64,000 nt of DNA, taken from assembly GCA_041660165.1 (NCBI GenBank), contig JBAZWW010000001.1, forward strand, positions 105,035 through 169,034. Reading direction: 5' to 3'. Positions 9,271 through 53,545 of the stretch are shown one piece after another. The stretch comes from Patescibacteria group bacterium (GTDB lineage Bacteria > Patescibacteriota > Patescibacteriia > UBA9934). Made by a program: the position numbers and the translations under genes. The notes under the pieces were generated by a model. The model worked only from the letters and a program-made list of their open reading frames with translations, was not told where the DNA came from and searched no databases. Each line of letters begins with the position of its first letter. Within the stretch, counting starts at the first letter, position 1.

Positions 9271-9924
9271 ATGTCTTCTATGATTCATGGTCTTCGAATA
9301 GTTTTTATAGCCTTGATCGGAACAGCCCTGGCAGGATTTCTTTTGCTGTTTTCGGTTATTATGATCGAGGGGAAACGGCATGATGTGAAGGCTGATCTTC
9401 AGGCCATTGCTCCGCAGAATGTAGCGATTGTTTTTGGCGCAGGAATCAAACGAGACAATACGCCATCTGATGCCTTAGAAGATAGGTTGATCGTAGCGGC
9501 GAGGCTCTATCATGCTGGTCAGGTCAAAACGATTCTTGTTTCCGGCGACAACCGATTTAAAAATTATTCCGAGCCGGACGTGATGCGGGATGCGCTTGTT
9601 GAGCGCATGGGCGTAGATGCAAAAGACATTCAGGCTGATTACGCCGGACGCCGGACGTATGACACTTGTATTCGAGCAAAAAAACTTTGGGGAGTTGATC
9701 ACGCCATTCTAATTTCACAAGATTTTCATCTTCCGCGAGCCATCTGGACCTGTGATAAATTAGGTATTGAAAGTTCCGGCGCTTCAGCCTCACTCCGTCC
9801 CTACATGTTTGCCGTGGATTATCGTGCTCGAGAAATTCTGGCCGATCTGAACGCCTTTATTAACGTCTATATTTGGCATCCTGGGTACGTGGGAGGGGAG
9901 TTTGTGACGGATATTGATCCGTAA
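9271..9924 (+). CDS. sanA: SanA/YdcF (DUF218) family envelope protein
   Basis: N-terminal TM segment, then IVFGAGI...LVSGDNRFKNYSEPDVMRD...ILISQDFHLPRA, characteristic of SanA/DUF218. Confidence 0.75.
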   Translation: MSSMIHGLRIVFIALIGTALAGFLLLFSVIMIEGKRHDVKADLQAIAPQNVAIVFGAGIKRDNTPSDALEDRLIVAARLYHAGQVKTILVSGDNRFKNYSEPDVMRDALVERMGVDAKDIQADYAGRRTYDTCIRAKKLWGVDHAILISQDFHLPRAIWTCDKLGIESSGASASLRPYMFAVDYRAREILADLNAFINVYIWHPGYVGGEFVTDIDP

Positions 9925-9983
9925 TTGAAACACCCCGCCGTTAGCGACCCATGGGGGCGTTTCATCGGCGGGATGACGGCGGG
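9925..9983 (+). repeat. Island boundary repeat, copy 1
   Basis: TTGAAACACCCCGCCGTTAGCGACCCATGGGGGCGTTTC starts directly at the sanA stop. It differs by 2 mismatches in 39 nt from the copy at 12768. Confidence 0.6.
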
Positions 9984-10011
9984 AGGCTTAGGCGCATGGC
10001 CCGAAGCCTCA

Positions 10012-10431
10012 CCAGAAGTGATTCCGTAAGGCATGGCAGGTAGCTGCCAAAAGCTGGCTAAGCTTTTTTCTGGCCCGTATATTTCTAAGCTCTGAGGGTT
10101 GCGCCGGTGAAGCAGGATATTCGGTGAGAACTTCCGGCACCGGGCGCGGAATGAAACGCACGACGCAGTCACGGATCAGCCCTTCCAGGCTGACTCCCAT
10201 GCGCTCCTGTCCGCGCTCCGACCAGGTGATGCGCACGCGGACGGGGGCGCCGTTTGAGCGTTCGTGCTTTGGCCTGTACTTGATGACGATGTCGTCCGGC
10301 TTGCAGGGGAACCCGGCGGTAGTACAGACCGCGCTCAGCTCTTTCTGCAGACGGGCTTGTTGATGGCCGGTCAGCACATCCATACTCCATTGCACGTCTC
10401 CCAAGCAGTTGAGGATTTCAACAGTGGGCAT
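10012..10431 (-). CDS. Hypothetical protein with 4-OT/tautomerase-like N-terminus
   Basis: Starts MPTVEILNCLGDV... (a Pro-1 pattern). A strong AGGGAGGG Shine-Dalgarno lies 5 nt upstream. The gene is GC-rich. The ORF-track extension to 10683 is probably spurious. Confidence 0.4.
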
Positions 10432-10490
10432 TGGACCCTCCCTGGCGTGTTGAGAAGCGATTACACGCGAACAAAATACGCCTCCCACGT

Positions 10491-10550
10491 AAAGCGTCAA
10501 GTACAAAACACCCCGCCTGCGCGCGATCCTCGGTCGAGGTGTTTCGCGGT
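10491..10550 (+). repeat. Island repeat, copy 1b
   Basis: GTACAAAACACCCCGCC...GGTGTTTCGCGGTAGCGGGGTG. Confidence 0.5.
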
Positions 10551-10583
10551 AGCGGGGTGCAGGTGATGGTTGTGGGATGGCGG

Positions 10584-10958
10584 CTACATCCCGAGACAGG
10601 CCTTTTCGATGACTCCATTTTTGACGATGAAGTCGGTTCCCGAGTTCGGATCGATGTAGACGATTCCAGCGTCCCTCGGCCAATCTGCATGAAGAGTGGC
10701 GTAGGTTACGGCGACGAGCACAAGATCGGTTCGAAGAGTAGCTAGCGGTTCGTCCGTCTTGATTGCTTCTACGACGCCGTATGCATGATCCGTTCCTTTG
10801 CGGGTGATACGCACGACTCGATGCAGATCGTATTCAACTATGACACCGCCCGCTGACCAGACGATGCTTTTGAGGAGTGGAACAGGCAGGTGGCGATGGC
10901 TACGACCACATGCATCAAGGTAGTAGTGGATACATTCTTGAACGAGTGTAAATTCCAT
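10584..10958 (-). CDS. Hypothetical protein, 124 aa, GC-rich
   Basis: Reasonable amino-acid composition. GGAG lies 5 nt upstream of the MEFTLVQE start, and a TATACT -10-like box is further upstream. Confidence 0.4.
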   Translation of the reverse strand: MEFTLVQECIHYYLDACGRSHRHLPVPLLKSIVWSAGGVIVEYDLHRVVRITRKGTDHAYGVVEAIKTDEPLATLRTDLVLVAVTYATLHADWPRDAGIVYIDPNSGTDFIVKNGVIEKACLGM

Positions 10959-11110
10959 GGGGTCTCCATATCGAACCATTCAGTATAGCAAAAAAATACG
11001 AATTTGTCAATAATTCCGCTAACATTAGATAGAAAAACTACCAAGAGCTCCTCAGCGAACGCTAGTCAAAGACCATTGAAAAACAAGTGCCGGTCTTTCA
11101 ATACGCATAA

Positions 11111-11182
11111 TGTACATTTTGTTCAAATTGAAACACCCCGCTCGTCAGCTGGCCCGGAGGGGTGTTTCGCTGTGGCGGGGCG
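11111..11182 (+). repeat. Island repeat, copy 2
   Basis: TGTACATTTTGTTCAAATTGAAACACCCCGC-loop-GGGGTGTTTCGCTGTGGCGGGGCG. Confidence 0.6.
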
Positions 11183-11207
11183 TACGTGGCAGATGCCAGT
11201 AGTCGAG

Positions 11208-11549
11208 CTACGCGCTCGTGGGCGCAGGGGCCTTGATGGCCAGGAGCTCTTCGACCGTTTTTTCGATGATCTGGTCGAGCAGTCCGCCGGGCGCGGTGAT
11301 CTGCTCCAGGGTGACCGGCTTCATTCGCTTGAGGTCGTCGTAGACGTCCTCCATGAGGTCGAGAGTTGCGCCGACCTTGAGCGGGATGTCGTTCACGGCG
11401 AGCACATTGATCGTTTCGATCTCGCGGACGATGCCCTGCATGGGCGTCTCGCCGTTCGCCGACACCTCGGCGCAGAAGCGCGTGATGCAGGAGCGGATGA
11501 AGGCCGTGATCATGGCAACTTCTTCGGGGATGAGACCTGACGGTGGCAT
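11208..11549 (-). CDS. Hypothetical protein B, 113 aa, paralogous to the adjacent gene
   Basis: A GGAG Shine-Dalgarno precedes the start. Its C-terminus ...LLDQIIEKTVEELLAIKAPAPTSA resembles ...VLDQLRSEITAIKIPEPANV of the upstream gene. Confidence 0.55.
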   Translation of the reverse strand: MPPSGLIPEEVAMITAFIRSCITRFCAEVSANGETPMQGIVREIETINVLAVNDIPLKVGATLDLMEDVYDDLKRMKPVTLEQITAPGGLLDQIIEKTVEELLAIKAPAPTSA

Positions 11550-11622
11550 GAAAACTCCAATAGGCGGATTGCCTGCCTATAAAGTAAGCATTTTTTTGCA
11601 CCCAGTCAACGGTAGACCCTGG

Positions 11623-11955
11623 CTAGACGTTGGCCGGCTCAGGAATCTTGATAGCCGTGATTTCCGACCGGAGCTGGTCGAGCACGGTGTTGATTGCGTC
11701 CCTGAACTCTTCGATCGTTTTCGGGGCCAGGACCGCCAGCTCCACGTAGCACTGCCGGTGGAACCCAAGGTAGCGTTCTTGGAGGGTGGTGGGCTTGTCG
11801 TCGAGTATCTGGTCAATCATCCGGATGACGGTCCAGATCTTGTCGACGGGTTGGCTCTTTTCCTTATCGATCGTTTGTCCCAGCCGAATCGCCGACGAAG
11901 CGAACGTGTCGAAGTGCCCGTCCAATTCCTTCAAAGTGACGTCAATCGGTTGCAT
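11623..11955 (-). CDS. Hypothetical protein A, 110 aa, paralogous to the downstream gene
   Basis: A strong GGAGG Shine-Dalgarno lies 4 nt upstream. The protein is non-repetitive and of balanced composition. Confidence 0.6.
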   Translation of the reverse strand: MQPIDVTLKELDGHFDTFASSAIRLGQTIDKEKSQPVDKIWTVIRMIDQILDDKPTTLQERYLGFHRQCYVELAVLAPKTIEEFRDAINTVLDQLRSEITAIKIPEPANV

Positions 11956-12039
11956 GAGACCTCCGTGAGCATGGCTCCTGGAAAGGGTAGGCGTTTGCTT
12001 CTACCGCGTCAACGGTGTTTGGTTATTGATTAAATATAT

Positions 12040-12095
12040 TACATAAGATGCTTATGTATTTTTTGAATGGGTAATTTGTACAAATTGTACAAATT
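12040..12095. promoter_or_regulatory. Promoter/operator region of higBA with two palindromes
   Basis: TACATAAG-atg-CTTATGTA (12040-12058) and AATTTGTACAAATTGTACAAATT (12073-12095) lie 55-110 bp upstream of higB. Confidence 0.4.
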
Positions 12096-12125
12096 GAAAC
12101 ACCCCGTCGATAGCAGCCATCATTC
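12073..12125 (+). repeat. Island repeat, copy 3 (left half only)
   Basis: AATTTGTACAAATTGTACAAATTGAAACACCCCGTCG... has no matching right arm. Confidence 0.4.
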
Positions 12126-12168
12126 GGCCATTGACACATAGTAACGCGTGGCGTTATCATTGGAACGT

Positions 12169-12453
12169 ATGATTCAATCGTTCGCCGATGCAGATACGAA
12201 GCATATTTTCCAACGGGATCTCATTAAGAGGTTTCCAACGTGGCTGCAGAAGATTGCGTTAAGAAAACTTCTGCATATTCACGCCGCTCACCGGCTTGAT
12301 GATCTGAAAGTCCCGCCGGGTAATCGTCTTGAGAAACTCAAAGGCAAGGACGGAGACAAGCACAGCATCCGAGTAAACGATCAATGGCGGTTGCGCTTCA
12401 AATGGAAAGATAGCGACGCCTATGAAGTTTGTTTAATCGATTACCACGACTAA
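12169..12453 (+). CDS. higB: HigB toxin (RelE/ParE superfamily)
   Basis: MIQSF....PPGNRLEKLKGKDGDKHSIRVNDQWRLRFKWKDSDAYEVCLIDYHD matches the HigB killer-protein consensus. The ORF-track GTG start at 12148 is trimmed to the ATG. Confidence 0.8.
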   Translation: MIQSFADADTKHIFQRDLIKRFPTWLQKIALRKLLHIHAAHRLDDLKVPPGNRLEKLKGKDGDKHSIRVNDQWRLRFKWKDSDAYEVCLIDYHD

Positions 12454-12454
12454 T

Positions 12455-12751
12455 ATGAAAAAACAAAAACCCATTCATCCTGGCGAAATCCTCCTTGAAG
12501 ATTTTCTTCTGGCGATGGAGATCACTCAGTATCGTTTGGCAAAGGATATTAGCGTGCCTGCTCGCCGAATCAACGAAATCGTTCACGGCAACCGCGCCAT
12601 TAGCCCGGACACCGCGCTTCGACTGGCAAAGTATTTTGGCACCAGTCCCGAATTCTGGATGAATCTCCAGGCTCATTATGATCTTGAGCTACTCAATGAG
12701 AGTTGGTCGAAAACCATCGAGAAACAGGTGCGAGTATTTCAACCGGCGTAA
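12455..12751 (+). CDS. higA: HigA antitoxin (XRE-type HTH)
   Basis: IHPGEILLEDFL...ITQYRLAKDISVPARRINEIVHGNRAISPDTALRLAKYFGTSPEFWMNLQ is the canonical HigA sequence. The gene begins 2 nt after the higB stop. Confidence 0.85.
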   Translation: MKKQKPIHPGEILLEDFLLAMEITQYRLAKDISVPARRINEIVHGNRAISPDTALRLAKYFGTSPEFWMNLQAHYDLELLNESWSKTIEKQVRVFQPA

Positions 12752-12767
12752 AGTACAATTTGTACAA

Positions 12768-12822
12768 AATGAAACACCCCGCCGTTAGCGACCCATGGGG
12801 GTGTTTCGCTGTGGCGGGGTGA
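12768..12822 (+). repeat. Island boundary repeat, copy 4
   Basis: ATGAAACACCCCGCCGTTAGCGACCCATGGGGGTGTTTCGCTGTGGCGGGGTG, preceded by AATTTGTACAAAA. Confidence 0.6.
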
Positions 12823-12854
12823 CGAAGGAGATACGTTTCGCGGACGTTGGAGCG

Positions 12855-13121
12855 TTATTCGTTATCAGTGAACTTTGGGCTTTCGACGCCGAGTTCAATG
12901 AGCGTCTGGTGTGCTTTTTTGTGCTCGTCATCGGTGTTGTACACCAGGCCGCCGCAGAGCCTGCAGTCGCTCCACATGACGCTCATATGGACGATGCCGT
13001 TATTCGAGCGTCTGCGAAGAGATATTGCGCCTTTGATCTTTTGCACCGCCGTTTCGATGCGCCTTTTTTCTAGAAATTTGTTGAACTTCTCTTCTGGAGT
13101 GACGGCTTTTTCTTCGCCCAT
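12855..13121 (-). CDS. Hypothetical 88-aa protein with an H..CxxC..HxxxH cluster
   Basis: GGAGG lies 4 nt upstream of ATGGGCGAAGAA. The upstream part of the ORF-track prediction is discarded. Confidence 0.55.
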   Translation of the reverse strand: MGEEKAVTPEEKFNKFLEKRRIETAVQKIKGAISLRRRSNNGIVHMSVMWSDCRLCGGLVYNTDDEHKKAHQTLIELGVESPKFTDNE

Positions 13122-13182: not shown

Positions 13183-14631
13183 ATGGACCATGGAGATGTC
13201 ATTATCAGATTTGAGGCCGTGTCCTTTGGATACGACGCGGAAAACATGCTTTTAGACGAGGCAGATTTTTCGGTGAGAGAGAACTCGAAAATGACCGTCA
13301 TGGGGCAGAACGGGGCGGGGAAGAGCACGATTTTTAAATTATTGACGGGCGCTTTGAAGCCGGATAGGGGCGAGATTCATATCAAGCAGGGGGCGAGTAT
13401 TGCCATCGCTACGCAGGTCATGCCGAGAGAGAAGCTCGAGCATACTGTCCGCGAGTTTTTTGCGAGTGCCTTCTCGGAAAAACACCACAACCTCGACAAA
13501 CTGATTACGGATGTACTCGTCGTAGTAAATCTCAAGGCACCACTCGATAAGAAGATCAAAGAATTTTCGGGGGGCCAGCAAGCTCGTCTTCTTCTCGCTT
13601 ATGCACTCATTCAAGAGCCGGACATTCTGCTTCTAGACGAGCCGACGAACAATCTTGACGCTGACGGCATTGCCGAGCTCACGGCTTTCTTGATCATGTA
13701 CGAAAAAACGGTGCTCGTTATTTCCCACGACGCGGATTTCTTGAACTCGTTCACGGACGGCGTGCTTCACCTTGACGTGTATACCGGCAAGGTTGATCGC
13801 TACGAGGGCAACTATGTAGACGTTGTCAAAGAGATCACGGCGCGGGTTGAGCGCGAGCAGATGAAGAACGCCAGACTATTAAAAGAAATCCAAGATAGAA
13901 AGGATAAGGTGAACTTCTTTGCGCACAAAGGAGGCAAGATGCGAAAACTCGCCAGCAAGCTCAAGGACCAGGTCGAGGAAGCCGAGGAAAACATGGTCGA
14001 GGTCAAGCGCGATGACAGAACCATCCGCGATTTTCAGATTCCGGCGCAGGCTTGGAATGACAACGTGTTGTCCATTACCTCAGTTAAGGTCATAAAGAAT
14101 CACGAGGCCGAGGAGAAGCCGGTTAAGATATATCTACGCAAGGGCCAGCGCCTGCTGATCACCGGACCAAACGGTATTGGCAAGAGCACGTTTTTACGAT
14201 CTCTCTCCGCCGGGGAAGCTGGTTCGAACATTGCTAAGGGTGTTGCCGTCGGCTATTATCGCCAGGATTTTTCCGGCCTCGACTTCAATAAGAGCGCCTA
14301 TGACTCGCTGGCTGAAATGATGCACCAGCCGGATAATGAAACGATCAGAAAAACGGGCGCCCATTTCCTCCTGAACGGCGACGCGCTCGCCACCAAAGTT
14401 GGCAGTCTATCTGAGGGACAGAAGGGTTTGCTCTGCTTCGCCCGGTTCGTACTCCAGAAGCCGGGCCTCCTAATTCTCGACGAGCCGACTAATCACATTA
14501 ACTTCCGCCACCTGCCAATTATTGCTAAGGCTATTGAGAATTATGAGGGGGCCATTGTGATGGTGAGCCACGCGCCGGACTTTGTGAGCCAGATTAAGTT
14601 TGGCCAAACGCTTGACCTTTCTGCTTTGTAG
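13183..14631 (+). CDS. ABC-F family ATPase (two ABC domains, no permease)
   Basis: Two Walker A sites (GQNGAGKST, GPNGIGKST), two signature motifs (FSGGQQARL, LSEGQKGLL) and an inter-domain linker. The start is trimmed to the MDHGD ATG. Confidence 0.85.
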   Translation: MDHGDVIIRFEAVSFGYDAENMLLDEADFSVRENSKMTVMGQNGAGKSTIFKLLTGALKPDRGEIHIKQGASIAIATQVMPREKLEHTVREFFASAFSEKHHNLDKLITDVLVVVNLKAPLDKKIKEFSGGQQARLLLAYALIQEPDILLLDEPTNNLDADGIAELTAFLIMYEKTVLVISHDADFLNSFTDGVLHLDVYTGKVDRYEGNYVDVVKEITARVEREQMKNARLLKEIQDRKDKVNFFAHKGGKMRKLASKLKDQVEEAEENMVEVKRDDRTIRDFQIPAQAWNDNVLSITSVKVIKNHEAEEKPVKIYLRKGQRLLITGPNGIGKSTFLRSLSAGEAGSNIAKGVAVGYYRQDFSGLDFNKSAYDSLAEMMHQPDNETIRKTGAHFLLNGDALATKVGSLSEGQKGLLCFARFVLQKPGLLILDEPTNHINFRHLPIIAKAIENYEGAIVMVSHAPDFVSQIKFGQTLDLSAL

Positions 14632-16643: not shown

Positions 16644-16675
16644 AAGGACCCCCGAATGGGGGTCCTTATTTGAAT
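16644..16675. terminator. Bidirectional intrinsic terminator
   Basis: GGACCCCC-gaat-GGGGGTCC is followed by TTATTTG. Confidence 0.6.
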
Positions 16676-17986: not shown

Positions 17987-18012
17987 AAAAACTCCCGAAT
18001 GGGAGTCTGTTG
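17987..18012 (+). terminator. Terminator candidate after the aminopeptidase gene
   Basis: CTCCC-gaat-GGGAG is followed by TCTGTTGATT. It has the same cccgaatggg loop as the terminator at 16644. Confidence 0.4.
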
Positions 18013-51913: not shown

Positions 51914-52339
51914 ATGGCCATTAGAAAACCACCGCGAGGAGTTGCTGCGTCCGTTGCTGTTTATTCGGCGAGTACAGGTTCATTTTTGATGATTCAGAGA
52001 AAGTGGGACCCAGATAAGGGCAAATGGGCCTTTCCTGGCGGGTATATGGAGGTTGATCAGGAAACCCTTGAGCAGGCCGGGGTCCGAGAATTAAAAGAAG
52101 AAACGGGTGTTGAGATTGCCGAAGCTCAGCTGAAGCTGATGCACGTACTGTCGGACCCTAAAAGAGACCCGCGGGGCCACGTAGTTGACGTGGGCTACTT
52201 TGTTCGCTTTGAAAAAGAGGCGCCCGGAATTGGCAGTGATGAAACGCGTACAAAATGGATCACGGTAGATGTGGCAAAACGGCTTGATTTCGCCCTGGGG
52301 CACCGTCAAATGTTTGATGAGGCCATGAAACTTATCTAG
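51914..52339 (+). CDS. NUDIX hydrolase
   Basis: GGYMEVDQETLEQAGVRELKEETGV Nudix box. Confidence 0.8.
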   Translation: MAIRKPPRGVAASVAVYSASTGSFLMIQRKWDPDKGKWAFPGGYMEVDQETLEQAGVRELKEETGVEIAEAQLKLMHVLSDPKRDPRGHVVDVGYFVRFEKEAPGIGSDETRTKWITVDVAKRLDFALGHRQMFDEAMKLI

Positions 52340-53265
52340 AGCTTCACGATCTGTTCGGCAAGCTGCACGTTCTCAATTTTGCTGTCGTGGTCAACGATAC
52401 ATGTGTCAATTTTCGAGTTCTCGATTCGTGCTCCCGCCAAAATGATCGAATCCTTAATGGTCGAATTTTTGATCTCGCAAGTTTCGTCAACATGATTCAC
52501 ACCCGCGAACGTATTGCCGAGTGCGGGGTCAAGGAACCTTGGCGGAACGGCGATCGAGGCCCCGGCATGAATGTGGGCGTCCACATACGCCCTGAAAGAG
52601 CCGATGTCATTCCAGTAGCCCGTGAAGGTATAGACATGAGACTCAACTCCTTGTTCGAGGAAATTCTCGAACACTGCCCCGATACGATCAGGCAAGCGGA
52701 CAGCGAGTTCCGAAATCATCGGCAAGTAGCGCTGAGGCACGTAATAGAAACAGGCGCCAACGAGTGTGGAGAGGGGATGCTCCGGCTTCTCTTGAAAGCT
52801 TTTTACGACGCTACCTTCCGCGATAACTACCCCGTACTTTTTTGCATCTTCAACATTTTGAATATCATAAGCAGCTAGCGCCGGCTGATTCTGAGTAAAG
52901 GCCATGAAGTCCTCTATCTTGAAGCTGAAGAAATTGTCCCCGCCGATAATTAGCAGGTCCTCGTCAATCTTAAACTGGTCTATGGCGAGTCCTACCGCGC
53001 CAAGGGAACCCTTCTTCGTAGCTTCTGACGTAGACGGTTCTACGAGCACAGTGATGTCCCTGTCTGCGTGCAGTTTTCGCCACTCGTGAAAATCGTTCTC
53101 AAACGCGGTATTGGTGCTCACAATGATGGGGAAGTGGGCGGGGACGTTCTCCACGATATGCGAAATGACCGCCTTGCCAGCCAGCGGTAAAAGCGTCTTC
53201 GCTTTATCTGCGGTTAATGGTTGCAAGCGTTTAGCAAAACCTCCGGCGAGGATCAATACTTTCAT
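52336..53265 (-). CDS. Sugar-1-phosphate nucleotidyltransferase with C-terminal left-handed beta-helix
   Basis: MKVLILAGGFAKRLQPLT G-x-G-x-R motif, and hexapeptide repeats at the C-terminus. Confidence 0.8.
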   Translation of the reverse strand: MKVLILAGGFAKRLQPLTADKAKTLLPLAGKAVISHIVENVPAHFPIIVSTNTAFENDFHEWRKLHADRDITVLVEPSTSEATKKGSLGAVGLAIDQFKIDEDLLIIGGDNFFSFKIEDFMAFTQNQPALAAYDIQNVEDAKKYGVVIAEGSVVKSFQEKPEHPLSTLVGACFYYVPQRYLPMISELAVRLPDRIGAVFENFLEQGVESHVYTFTGYWNDIGSFRAYVDAHIHAGASIAVPPRFLDPALGNTFAGVNHVDETCEIKNSTIKDSIILAGARIENSKIDTCIVDHDSKIENVQLAEQIVKL

Positions 53266-53469
53266 AAGATGATTCTTTTTATCACAAAATGGGAGACGGT
53301 TCAATATGGGTCAGATTCTAGACAGGGGAGTAGGGAGACCCATATGCTAGTTTAAAACGCGGGTATCCAGATAGCCTTCACACGAATATAGTGGCGTCGC
53401 ACAATATATCTTCTACGACCCTTGGGGCGTTAATTACCATGAATCGCTAATACCTCAATAACCTTAGCA

Positions 53470-53545
53470 TCCCTCCTGAATCATACTTGTTCGCCCAATC
53501 AGATCTCTTCCCTTCGACAAGCTCAGGGTCGAGATGACAACGTGG
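53470..53545. repeat. Degenerate dispersed-repeat copy N
   Basis: CGCCCAATCAGATCTCTTCCCTTCGACAAGCTCAGGGTCGAGATGACAA resembles the inner half of copies A and D. Confidence 0.4.

Follow-up and report, generated by a model that had tools for sequence, protein, structure and literature searches.

Introduction

The CPR bacteria (Patescibacteria) have genomes of roughly 1 Mb with few recognised mobile elements, and their means of acquiring accessory genes are poorly known. REP/BIME and REPIN elements are short, imperfect, GC-rich palindromes at the 3' ends of genes that can serve as terminators, mRNA stabilisers or recombination hotspots. Phage morons are autonomous promoter-gene-terminator units between resident genes. 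In the minimal mobile elements and repeat-rich intergenic hotspots of Neisseria, strain-specific cassettes lie between conserved flanks and are thought to be exchanged by DNA uptake and homologous recombination. According to the citation in PMC1538595, this concept comes from Saunders and Snyder 2002.

Integrons provide another point of comparison. Integron cassettes rarely carry promoters, and two or more attC sites that share a strand, fall within 4 kb and have no intI nearby are classed as a CALIN (PMC4889954). Xer recombination sites have a characteristic 28-bp form, with two 11-bp arms whose inner parts are palindromic and a 6-bp centre (PMC6449649).

The locus described here lies in a 64-kb stretch of DNA (the window) from an uncultured Uhrbacteria (CPR) genome whose size we assume to be roughly 1 Mb; another 0.7 kb was also available. 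Positions 9925-12831 form a block of ~2.9 kb in which small orphan genes and one toxin-antitoxin pair are parted by copies of a repeat, H (Table 1). The block appears to be a gene-swapping hotspot that is laid out like an integron cassette array, yet it fails key tests for one. As with the Neisseria elements, differing cassettes lie between the same conserved flanking genes, but here the cassettes are stacked in tandem with a copy of a single structured repeat at the boundary of each, and crossovers map to H and not to the flanking genes alone. Like phage morons, the cassettes appear to be autonomous promoter-gene-terminator units among resident genes; unlike morons, they have no phage context, and their predicted terminators are copies of one another.

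Table 1. Features of the block and its flanks (positions in the 64-kb window)
Feature	Position	Strand	Description
sanA/DUF218, left flank	9271..9924	+	Pfam: DUF218 protein
H1	9925..9985	+	Abuts sanA stop; 3' of minus-strand ORF140; degenerate tail; 67.6 bits
ORF140	10009..10431	-	Orphan; homologues in L012 (121 aa, E 1e-10) and L010 (115 aa)
ORF140 promoter-like site	10473..10500	-	TTGACG-16-TATTTT, 9/12
S2'	10494..10508	+	Half S motif GCGTCAAGTACAAAA; on minus strand, -35 box of ORF140 promoter; also in L007 copy a
H2	10503..10569	+	Full copy, own loop; 3' of minus-strand ORF131; 64.6 bits
ORF131 (WC802_00590)	10584..10979	-	124 aa by NCBI call; strong own promoter (predicted)
ORF131 promoter-like site	10982..11010	-	TTGACA-17-TATACT, TG extension, 11/12
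higA 3'-end relic	11045..11110	+	76% to 12686-12751; 85% to L007 relic
S3	11103..11128	+	A/T-rich TGTACA motif; dif-like; overlaps relic higA stop codon
H3	11128..11192	+	Full copy; 3' of ORF110-ORF113 unit; orthologous to L007 copy b; 70.6 bits
ORF113	11208..11549	-	GC3 86%; C-terminal part conserved in L007, dN/dS 0.36
ORF110	11623..11955	-	Predicted helical; homologues in L007 (80%) and L010 (47%); dN/dS 0.20
S4	12073..12095	+	AATTTGTACAAATTGTACAAATT; two tandem TGTACAAAT units including a perfect palindrome
H4'	12094..12130	+	Truncated (left arm and loop); stops where higB promoter starts
higBA promoter-like site	12131..12160	+	TTGACA-18-TATCAT, 11/12; palindrome AACGCGTGGCGTT between boxes; conserved in L012
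higB toxin	12169..12453	+	PF05015, 3.5e-18; PHROG toxin family
higA antitoxin	12455..12751	+	HTH_3, PF01381, 6.5e-9; PHROG antitoxin family
S5	12752..12770	+	AGTACAATTTGTACAAAAT, directly after higA stop; perfect 16-bp inverted repeat with S4
H5	12769..12831	+	Best full copy; 3' of minus-strand ORF88; 94.9% identical to L007 copy a; 87 bits
ORF88	12855..13121	-	Small, Cys-containing; H5 at 3' end as putative terminator; homologue (79 aa) elsewhere in L007 array
ABC-F ATPase, right flank	13183..14631	+	Profile match; anchor for comparing relatives

The H repeat and the genes between its copies

H is an element of ~63 nt with five same-strand copies, the fourth of them truncated. The unit has sharp, repeatable ends (AAWTGAAAC to GTGACGRRGGA), which are also compatible with a site-specific system. 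The original prediction of five directly oriented repeats was confirmed using GAAACACCCCG, which occurs with at most one mismatch on the plus strand only at 9927, 10505, 11130, 12096 and 12771. Its reverse complements fall inside copies 2, 3 and 5; on both strands there are 8 matches versus 1.1 expected, and 0 elsewhere in the 64 kb. A 39-nt unit said to recur at both ends of the block was also recovered, with copies 1 and 5 being 95% identical over 41 nt around a 32-nt exact core, and copy 4 is, as had been described, a left arm and loop and nothing more. The shared tail reported earlier takes the form GTGTTTCGCnGTrGCGGGG and is found at 10539, 11162 and 12801 only. Arm, loop and linker variants form a mosaic among the copies. 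Scanning 1.17 Mb of related loci with a covariance model returned six full copies and two simple hairpins in the related locus L010, and nothing else; among the related loci compared, the H family is present in two species only. A 15-nt loop is identical in three copies across these two species. This is more conservation than a terminator requires, and hints at protein recognition or recent exchange.

Between PIF1 and ABC-F, this genome has four transcription units with five small genes on the minus strand and a single higBA pair in the opposite orientation. The cassettes are thus less mixed in orientation than proposed earlier, higBA being the only reversed unit: ORF140, ORF131, ORF113 with ORF110, and ORF88 in the flank share the minus strand, so that four of five units run the same way, and each of the four has H at its 3' end. 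Identification of higBA was sound: a Pfam-matched toxin gene is followed by an HTH antitoxin gene in one operon, and L012 has an orthologous pair. A relic of the higA 3' end, together with the repeat, occupies 11045-11141 at 76% identity, and the higA relic alignment scores 56 against a null maximum of 26. ORF140 had been called tautomerase-like, an assignment for which we find no support: ORF140 has no Pfam match, and its L012 homologue, which starts MFLIRI, has Phe at position 2 in place of the N-terminal catalytic proline of that superfamily. The structure model of ORF140 is of low confidence (pLDDT 51). A homologue search with ORF131 found none. ORF110 and ORF113, described as paralogues, are indeed related, but weakly (E 0.005), and its dN/dS indicates that ORF110 is a real gene.

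The block was originally described as a GC-shifted island of ~60%. The interval 10000-12000 has a lower GC content of 55.8%, and 30001-32001 matches it; the window mean is 51.7% (sd 2.1% for 2-kb windows). Compositional outliers are limited to ORF113 (z 4.5) and ORF110 (GC3 79%, z 3.5), while ORF131 and higBA are ordinary.

H as a putative terminator

In minus-strand RNA, each full copy of H is predicted to form a long hairpin (-25 to -36 kcal/mol) with a U-rich tract directly after the 3' arm. Fold energies are -27.7 kcal/mol for H1, -32.8 kcal/mol for H2 (z -4.3) and -28.7 kcal/mol for H5 (z -4.6). The hairpin spans ~52 nt and consists of a 9-bp outer stem, CACCCCGCC/GGCGGGGUG, and two inner stems of 4 bp each, with internal loops, followed by UUUCAAUUU or UUUUGUACUU. 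Two alternative pairings had been proposed for each repeat, and both were found on folding. The long hairpin is 91% paired and has two compensatory pairs, while every variation in the short hairpin disrupts it. The covariation is not significant, with 114 of 500 shuffles of the six sequences reaching the observed level.

Four of the five copies lie 24-34 nt past a minus-strand stop codon (ORF140, ORF131, ORF113 and ORF88). H thus has the features of a rho-independent terminator, with a GC-rich hairpin and then a U-rich tract at the gene 3' end, on the transcribed strand. Together with the promoter-like sites, the hairpin, its U-rich tract and its position past the stop codons suggest that the most likely role of H is that of an intrinsic terminator. 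Counting against this function, the hairpin greatly exceeds in length the short, canonical tetraloop terminators found in other parts of the window, and its U tract is interrupted. H went unflagged in a simple terminator scan, its loops being over the limit that the scan allows.

Comparison with related loci

The relatives compared are at the species level (85% at the nucleotide level), a distance at which individual events are not reconstructable. Insertion of the block relative to relatives, as originally predicted, is supported by the near-empty site in L010 (89% in ABC-F), where a single simple hairpin and one gene lie between sanA and ABC-F. Judged by this sequence comparison, the 2.9-kb block is accessory DNA inserted relative to relatives. 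In L007 (a 97% relative) the modules are the same but their order differs, and homology breaks at H. Such breaks at H are seen in three comparisons, which involve sanA with the left arm (window versus L010), the ORF140 5' region with the left arm (window versus L007), and H3 with ORF113 (window versus L007). Homology with the higBA region of L012 begins at 12131. H is more conserved than synonymous sites: the window and L007 share 82-85% identity in coding DNA, with a dS of 1.16 for ABC-F, against the much closer match of H5 to L007 copy a (Table 1).

Simple hairpins with a T-run are found at orthologous positions in relatives, after sanA in L010 and after the ORF140 homologue in L012, the latter with a related loop, GGTAGCGACC. 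H therefore looks to be derived from a simple terminator hairpin. L010 has three similar simple hairpins within 3 kb. Across Uhrbacteria, the spacing from PIF1 to ABC-F ranges from ~0.1 to 5 kb, as estimated from tblastn match positions.

A model for gene flux at H

The joint explanation that best fits these data, to which we would give an even chance of being correct, combines three elements. The PIF1-to-ABC-F interval would be a gene-flux hotspot of this Uhrbacteria lineage; H would be a lineage-specific elaboration of the simple intrinsic terminator seen at the same gene ends in relatives; and the breakpoints of cassettes would fall at H. From its structure and position, the H hairpin would terminate transcription and insulate the upstream cassette. 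The comparison with relatives shows breakpoints of cassette gain, loss and reordering at H, typically in the conserved arm AAACACCCCGCC. A cassette with one H could then leave as a circle or come in as taken-up DNA, and a single crossover with a resident H would give every cassette its own copy. The putative enzyme route that we think most likely is general homologous recombination on repeats of 60-100 nt.

Alternative explanations

An alternative that we consider unlikely is that H is the recombination site of a dedicated site-specific system, integron-like but with terminator-like hairpins that may act in folded, single-stranded form, and with a recombinase gene elsewhere in the genome. As in CALIN, same-strand, imperfectly palindromic sites of ~60 nt lie 3' of small, co-oriented and mostly unknown (here orphan) genes, and are more similar within a lineage than between lineages (PMC4889954). 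Like CALIN, the array includes a reversed toxin-antitoxin unit and has no integrase nearby; its five same-strand repeats fall within 2.9 kb, a spacing that would suit a CALIN if they counted as attC sites. Half of known CALIN are on replicons encoding no IntI (PMC4889954). The sharp ends of the unit, the permutation of cassettes at H between species, the conservation of H above synonymous sites with the same loop in three copies, and the retention of structure despite loop variation also favour a dedicated system.

Several findings argue against such a system. Both strands of all copies were read and, as had been noted, contain no RYYYAAC/GTTRRRY (R''/R') cores; the lone AAC/GTT pair, GAAAC/GTTTC, is off-consensus in its flanking bases. 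Unlike the mostly promoterless integron cassettes, ORF131, ORF140 and higB have promoter-like sites of their own, although co-orientation and the 3' position of the site hold for four units. Neither an integrase nor any other recombinase was found in the 64-kb window, in agreement with the original prediction; the flanks of +/-10 kb are wholly filled by other genes. H is confined to two species, apparently descends from an ordinary terminator, and shows loop swaps between H2 and L007 copy a that resemble gene conversion rather than cassette exchange. The array also differs from CALIN in that the fold has no recognisable arrangement of R/L boxes with extrahelical bases, and in that the host has a tiny CPR genome, of a size class in which no complete integrons were found (PMC4889954). 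Given the missing cores, the promoter-like sites, the lack of an integrase within 64 kb and the apparent descent from a simple terminator hairpin, membership of the attC or CALIN family, as suggested earlier, is not supported. The uncharacterised recombination-site family offered in its place is possible, but is not needed to explain the data. In a more specific proposal, which strikes us as rather improbable, H elements are attachment sites of an undescribed CPR cassette-exchange system, a "proto-integron" with a recruited terminator hairpin, served by a novel recombinase elsewhere or by host recombination on folded hairpins.

It is also rather doubtful that the H copies are terminators only, with their likeness due to local duplication and gene conversion and with no part in gene movement. 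The architecture and position of H are consistent with this idea, as are the three simple hairpins of L010, and the mosaic of arms, loops and linkers fits gene conversion. Nevertheless, a 63-nt unit with sharp ends is common to unrelated genes, three independent comparisons between genomes show homology breaking off at H, and the truncated H4' is located where no minus-strand gene ends.

An A/T-rich TGTACA motif, S, accompanies some copies of H. A palindrome had been predicted before copies 2, 3 and 4; S does precede copies 3 and 4, and also copy 5, but it is halved at copy 2 and missing at copy 1. S could be a Xer (dif-like) site, with the modules being dif-module or IMEX-like insertions moved by XerC/D, but this is very unlikely. 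S3 matches what we take to be the E. coli dif sequence at 22 of 25 positions with one gap, and is the sole match to a general dif pattern in the window (chance 0.06). Across 1.2 Mb of related loci, no other site comes within five mismatches of the E. coli dif core. Some 40 kb away there is a skew switch like that of a terminus. In Acinetobacter pdif/IMEX, small modules, including toxin-antitoxin dif modules of ~770 bp, are likewise bounded by short, A/T-rich, partly palindromic sites (PMC6449649), and here the inverted S4 and S5 surround higBA. However, S4 and S5 fit the Xer site form poorly; S3 fits it well, given a 1-nt insertion in the XerD arm. A Xer site is not present at every module boundary, S being absent at H1 and L007 copy b and halved at H2 and L007 copy a. 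In S3, the left arm is made up of the final codons of the higA relic and its stop. The corresponding locus in relatives lacks any dif-like site, and a candidate S-like relic in L007 was tested and unsupported. In contrast to pdif/IMEX, the sites read as direct rather than alternating, the locus is chromosomal, and what is conserved is the GC-rich hairpin next to S, a feature that dif modules do not have.

Finally, we regard it as highly improbable that H belongs with the small selfish repeats (REP/REPIN or MITE), which a transposase encoded elsewhere would copy and which would merely tend to land at gene ends. H is a short, GC-rich imperfect palindrome with 9-bp inverted termini, discrete ends and intergenic 3' positions, but it is clustered in one hotspot of two species, with no copies outside 9925-12831 in the 64-kb window (against the random scatter expected of a REP) and none in ~60 other intergenic regions, no target-site duplication or conserved GTAG-type head was seen by eye in the H copies, the window has no RAYT or Y1 transposase gene, and orthologously placed copies in relatives indicate vertical descent from a terminator.

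Conclusions

The locus suggests a concrete route of gene gain in CPR bacteria, in which self-contained promoter-gene-terminator units are stacked in a fixed hotspot between conserved genes, and a terminator copied at each boundary would mark the sites of past rearrangement. If H copies are merely repeated terminators acted on by homologous recombination, this would be a neat but ordinary case of hotspot dynamics. The origin of new integron cassettes is still unknown (PMC4889954). If the hairpin is a true recombination site, it would bear on that origin and would extend cassette-type capture to tiny symbiotic genomes; a "proto-integron", if real, would be a living example of attC-like sites arising from terminators.

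A structured repeat bounding a block of small genes

The core of H, a hairpin repeat adjoining the small genes between sanA and an ABC-F gene, is GAAACACCCCG. Allowing up to one mismatch, a scan of the 64-kb window located this core on the + strand at 9927, 10505, 11130, 12096 and 12771, and its reverse complement lies within copies 2, 3 and 5. Counting reverse complements, there are 8 occurrences against 1.1 expected in 64 kb, and none falls outside the five H copies, which bears out the original prediction of five directly oriented structured repeats. The right part of H, GTGTTTCGCnGTrGCGGGG, occurs in the window only at 10539, 11162 and 12801. Copies 1 and 5 flank the block at both ends and share 41 nt at 95% identity, and copy 4 (H4') consists of the left arm and loop alone, stopping at the start of the higB promoter; near-identical outer copies and a half-length inner copy had both been predicted. 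A covariance model built from the six full copies, four in the window and two (a and b) at the related locus L007, gives a unit length of ~63 nt.

Coordinates of the repeat copies and other local features (window positions unless stated)
Feature	Position	Strand	Description
H1	9925-9985	+	covariance-model limits
H2	10503-10569	+	covariance-model limits
H3	11128-11192	+	covariance-model limits
H5	12769-12831	+	covariance-model limits
S3	11103-11128		ACGCATAATGTACATTTTGTTCAAAT
16-bp inverted repeat	12075-12090, 12753-12768		TTTGTACAAATTGTAC / GTACAATTTGTACAAA, perfect, around higBA
higA relic	11045-11141		higA 3' end, S and H left arm
higB promoter palindrome	12131-12160; L012 9330-9362		TAACGCGTnnCGTTA
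Canonical short terminators	16644-16667, 17989-18008	-	GC stem, ATTC loop, T run; unrelated to H
RelB-like antitoxin gene	2274-2474; L001 3004-3204		lone gene upstream
Simple hairpins of L010	L010 6905-6950, 8124-8166, 9494-9527		AAAACACCCC[GA]CCGG..CCGG[TC]GGGGTG

A strict H pattern had no match in GTDB genomes or JGI metagenomes, and the sole match to a looser pattern in an exact-pattern scan was a relative's contig already known. The single match in a viral scan, in a high-GC phage, was attributed to chance. Neither motif scanning across 80 related loci nor a covariance-model search over 1.17 Mb of related loci yielded further copies; across all these searches the complex H was seen in no genome beyond those of the window and L007. 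Rfam at a permissive threshold gave no relevant match around the locus, and neither Rfam families nor tRNAs were found across the 64 kb. The window covers 6% of a genome of roughly 1 Mb, a size that is assumed. An assembly artefact was rejected, the ENA, NCBI and Logan assemblies giving one arrangement; Logan contigs end precisely at the 32-nt core common to H1 and H5, which is the behaviour to be expected at k=31. IS200/IS605 or PATE ends, a retron, a CRISPR-like repeat and a DNA uptake sequence were all dropped: the motif shows no dispersal, and genes for TnpA, TnpB, reverse transcriptase and Cas proteins are absent.

Gene content and base composition

Family matches identify the left flank as sanA/DUF218, the right flank as an ABC-F ATPase, and higB and higA as members of their respective families. 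ORF140, ORF131, ORF113, ORF110 and ORF88 had no Pfam or PHROG match, and ORF131 and ORF140 matched only themselves among 5.8 billion proteins. The NCBI locus tags in the block are WC802_00585 and WC802_00590, the latter being ORF131. The prediction of a tautomerase-like gene did not survive: there is no Pfam match, and the ORF140 homologue at the related locus L012 (E 1e-10) begins MFLIRI and lacks the catalytic proline. A protein database search with ORF110 returned a single close cluster and weak matches to long repetitive proteins; its dN/dS of 0.20 against the L007 orthologue indicates a real gene. Its sequence also has 3-8 separate matching stretches in long proteins of a representative library, P0123 (1175 aa), P0124 and P0125, a sign that the helical unit of ORF110 may serve as a repeat module elsewhere. 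Single-sequence structure models had pLDDT values of 51 (ORF140) and 54 (ORF110). A phage or plasmid origin of the block was discarded, since higA alone gave a match.

The block had been predicted to be richer in GC than its flanks, at ~60%. The 10000-12000 interval does stand at the top of the window distribution, but at 55.8% (window mean 51.7%, sd 2.1%, 2-kb windows); it is equalled at 30-32 kb, and the only GC3 outliers are ORF113 (86%, z 4.5) and ORF110 (79%, z 3.5), with ORF131 and higBA ordinary.

Probable terminator character of H

All five small genes lie on the - strand, and the - strand transcription units stop 24-34 nt ahead of an H copy. Promoter-like sites precede ORF131 (TTGACA-17-TATACT, 11/12, with TG), higB (11/12) and ORF140 (9/12), and weaker TTGAC(G/T) and -10 candidates were seen by eye upstream of ORF110 and ORF113. 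Given these sites and the position of H past the unit ends, the units look like self-contained promoter-gene-terminator units rather than promoterless cassettes. In the higB promoter, the spacer from the -35 box to the -10 box holds a palindrome that is kept in both the window and L012 and is a likely HigA operator.

Folded as DNA or RNA, full H copies reach minimum energy as a long hairpin that CACCCCGCC/GGCGGGGTG closes. In the six-copy alignment this hairpin shows 91% pairing and two compensatory pairs, a covariation that is not significant (matched by 114/500 shuffles, n=6). The short hairpin GAAACACCCC/GGGGTGTTTC is 87% paired, and each variant disrupts pairing. Both of the predicted alternative pairings exist, and comparison across the alignment favours the long one. 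On the - strand, UUUCAAUUU or UUUUGUACUU immediately follows the 3' arm. Elsewhere in the window, canonical terminators take the form of short tetraloop hairpins with sequences unrelated to H, which makes H a special element and not the usual terminator type here.

Homology breakpoints in related genomes

Three relatives, all at species-level distance, were informative. The original prediction had proposed comparing the syntenic sanA to ABC-F interval, and L010 (ABC-F 89% aa) is, from its gene order, a near-empty site: the sanA stop is followed by one simple hairpin, AAAAACACCCCGCCGGCGGTTCCGGTGGGGC, one ORF110 homologue (47%) and ABC-F. This hairpin has its left arm in common with H and on the - strand reads as a classic terminator, GGCGGGGUGUUUUUUAUGG. 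L012 (89%) has the order o135, simple hairpin AAAACACCCGTCGGTAGCGACCGAGGGTGTT, ORF140 homologue, higBA and then ABC-F directly; its hairpin loop is similar to that of H1/H5, and the locus has no sanA, S (the A/T-rich motif adjoining H) or complex H. L007 (97% aa, 85% nt) carries the ORF140 5' region, H copy a, homologues of ORF110 and ORF88, H copy b, a fusion of a truncated ORF113 homologue with a higA relic, and ABC-F.

Homology repeatedly breaks at H. The window and L010 have sanA and the left arm AAACACCCCGCC in common, and everything rightward differs. With L007, the window has the ORF140 5' region, half-S and left arm in common, followed by a different loop and a different gene; H3 and ORF113 are also common, with a different left flank. 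Identity between H5 and L007 copy a is 94.9% over 59 nt; both serve the ORF88/79 unit, and their left flanks are unrelated. The window order [113-110][higBA][88] corresponds to [79-110][113::higA] in L007. These comparisons show that modules have changed order and that the joins lie at H. Synonymous sites are much less conserved than H (dS 1.16 for ABC-F, 0.38-0.53 for cassettes). An ancestral higA-to-ABC-F junction is common to L007 and L012, so S5-H5-ORF88 must have been inserted in the lineage of the window. Ahead of H3 lies a higA relic (76% identical, significant against shuffles). The idea that higBA was formerly in every module was abandoned, since the stretches ahead of H2 and H4' were not significant; an S-like scar behind the L007 higA relic was likewise unsupported when examined.

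Among Uhrbacteria, PIF1 and ABC-F lie anywhere from about 0.1 kb to 5 kb apart (an estimate from tblastn match positions), which marks the interval as a hotspot. Toxin-antitoxin genes also recur around the region, given the RelB-like gene of the window and, at the equivalent position in L012, a RelB-YafQ pair. L010 has a local family of three simple hairpins, each between convergent genes in the same variable zone, with RhuM and Fic fragments. Numerous GTDB records titled "uncultured Gammaproteobacteria bacterium" (L026, L029, L033-L044 and others) encode ABC-F proteins 64-70% identical to the window's, and these titles are probably taxonomic mislabels.

Models for the origin and role of H

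We give an even chance to a model in which H is an elaborated terminator copy that still terminates the - strand units and is also the sequence of cassette exchange. H would be a lineage-specific elaboration of a terminator that once separated sanA (or o135) from the first - strand gene. Its structure and position suggest termination, and cassettes would be exchanged at H, where comparison places the breakpoints, possibly by a Campbell-type single crossover. The favoured enzyme route would be that DNA is taken up and recombines by ordinary homologous recombination at repeats of 60-100 nt. The alternative of a dedicated recombinase that works on the H hairpin is unlikely, though two features speak for it: the 15-nt loop is identical in three copies from two species, and the unit ends are sharp. 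As first noted, no recombinase is in view in the 64 kb. It is quite improbable that the copies are terminators made alike by gene conversion and irrelevant to mobility.

Action of Xer at S, as at dif, was also considered. S consists of tandem A/T-rich TGTACAAAT units. A palindrome had been predicted before copies 2, 3 and 4; S does precede copies 3 and 4, is only a half at copy 2, also precedes copy 5, and is absent at copy 1. S3 matches E. coli dif at 22/25 positions if one gap is allowed. Nothing else in the window matches a general dif pattern, and nothing else across 1.2 Mb of related loci comes within 5 mismatches of the E. coli dif core. The inverted repeat around higBA sits just beyond the region homologous to L012 higBA, an arrangement comparable with Acinetobacter toxin-antitoxin dif modules (PMC6449649). 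The cumulative GC skew peaks at 52000-53500 and gene strand flips from + to - near 52.3 kb, where genes are convergent; this switch at about 52-53 kb, ~40 kb from the H array, looks like the replication terminus. These features are consistent with Xer action, but S is missing or halved at 4/7 H copies, the fit of S4 and S5 to dif is poor, the higA relic ends in what forms the left arm of S3, and in relatives the locus has no such site, which makes the model very improbable. That H is a REP/MITE-like selfish repeat is hardly to be expected.

Relation to known systems

The layout resembles an integron cassette array or CALIN on a small scale, as originally proposed. This assignment failed the tests run: the locus has no R''/R' cores, the genes examined have promoter-like sites of their own, and the 64 kb holds no integrase. 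Published work found no complete integrons in genomes of this size class (PMC4889954). The locus both resembles and differs from REP/BIME elements, phage morons and Neisseria minimal mobile elements (PMC1538595). Given resemblance to known systems with differences from each, the locus is classed as a repeat-bounded cassette hotspot whose repeat would be terminator-derived.
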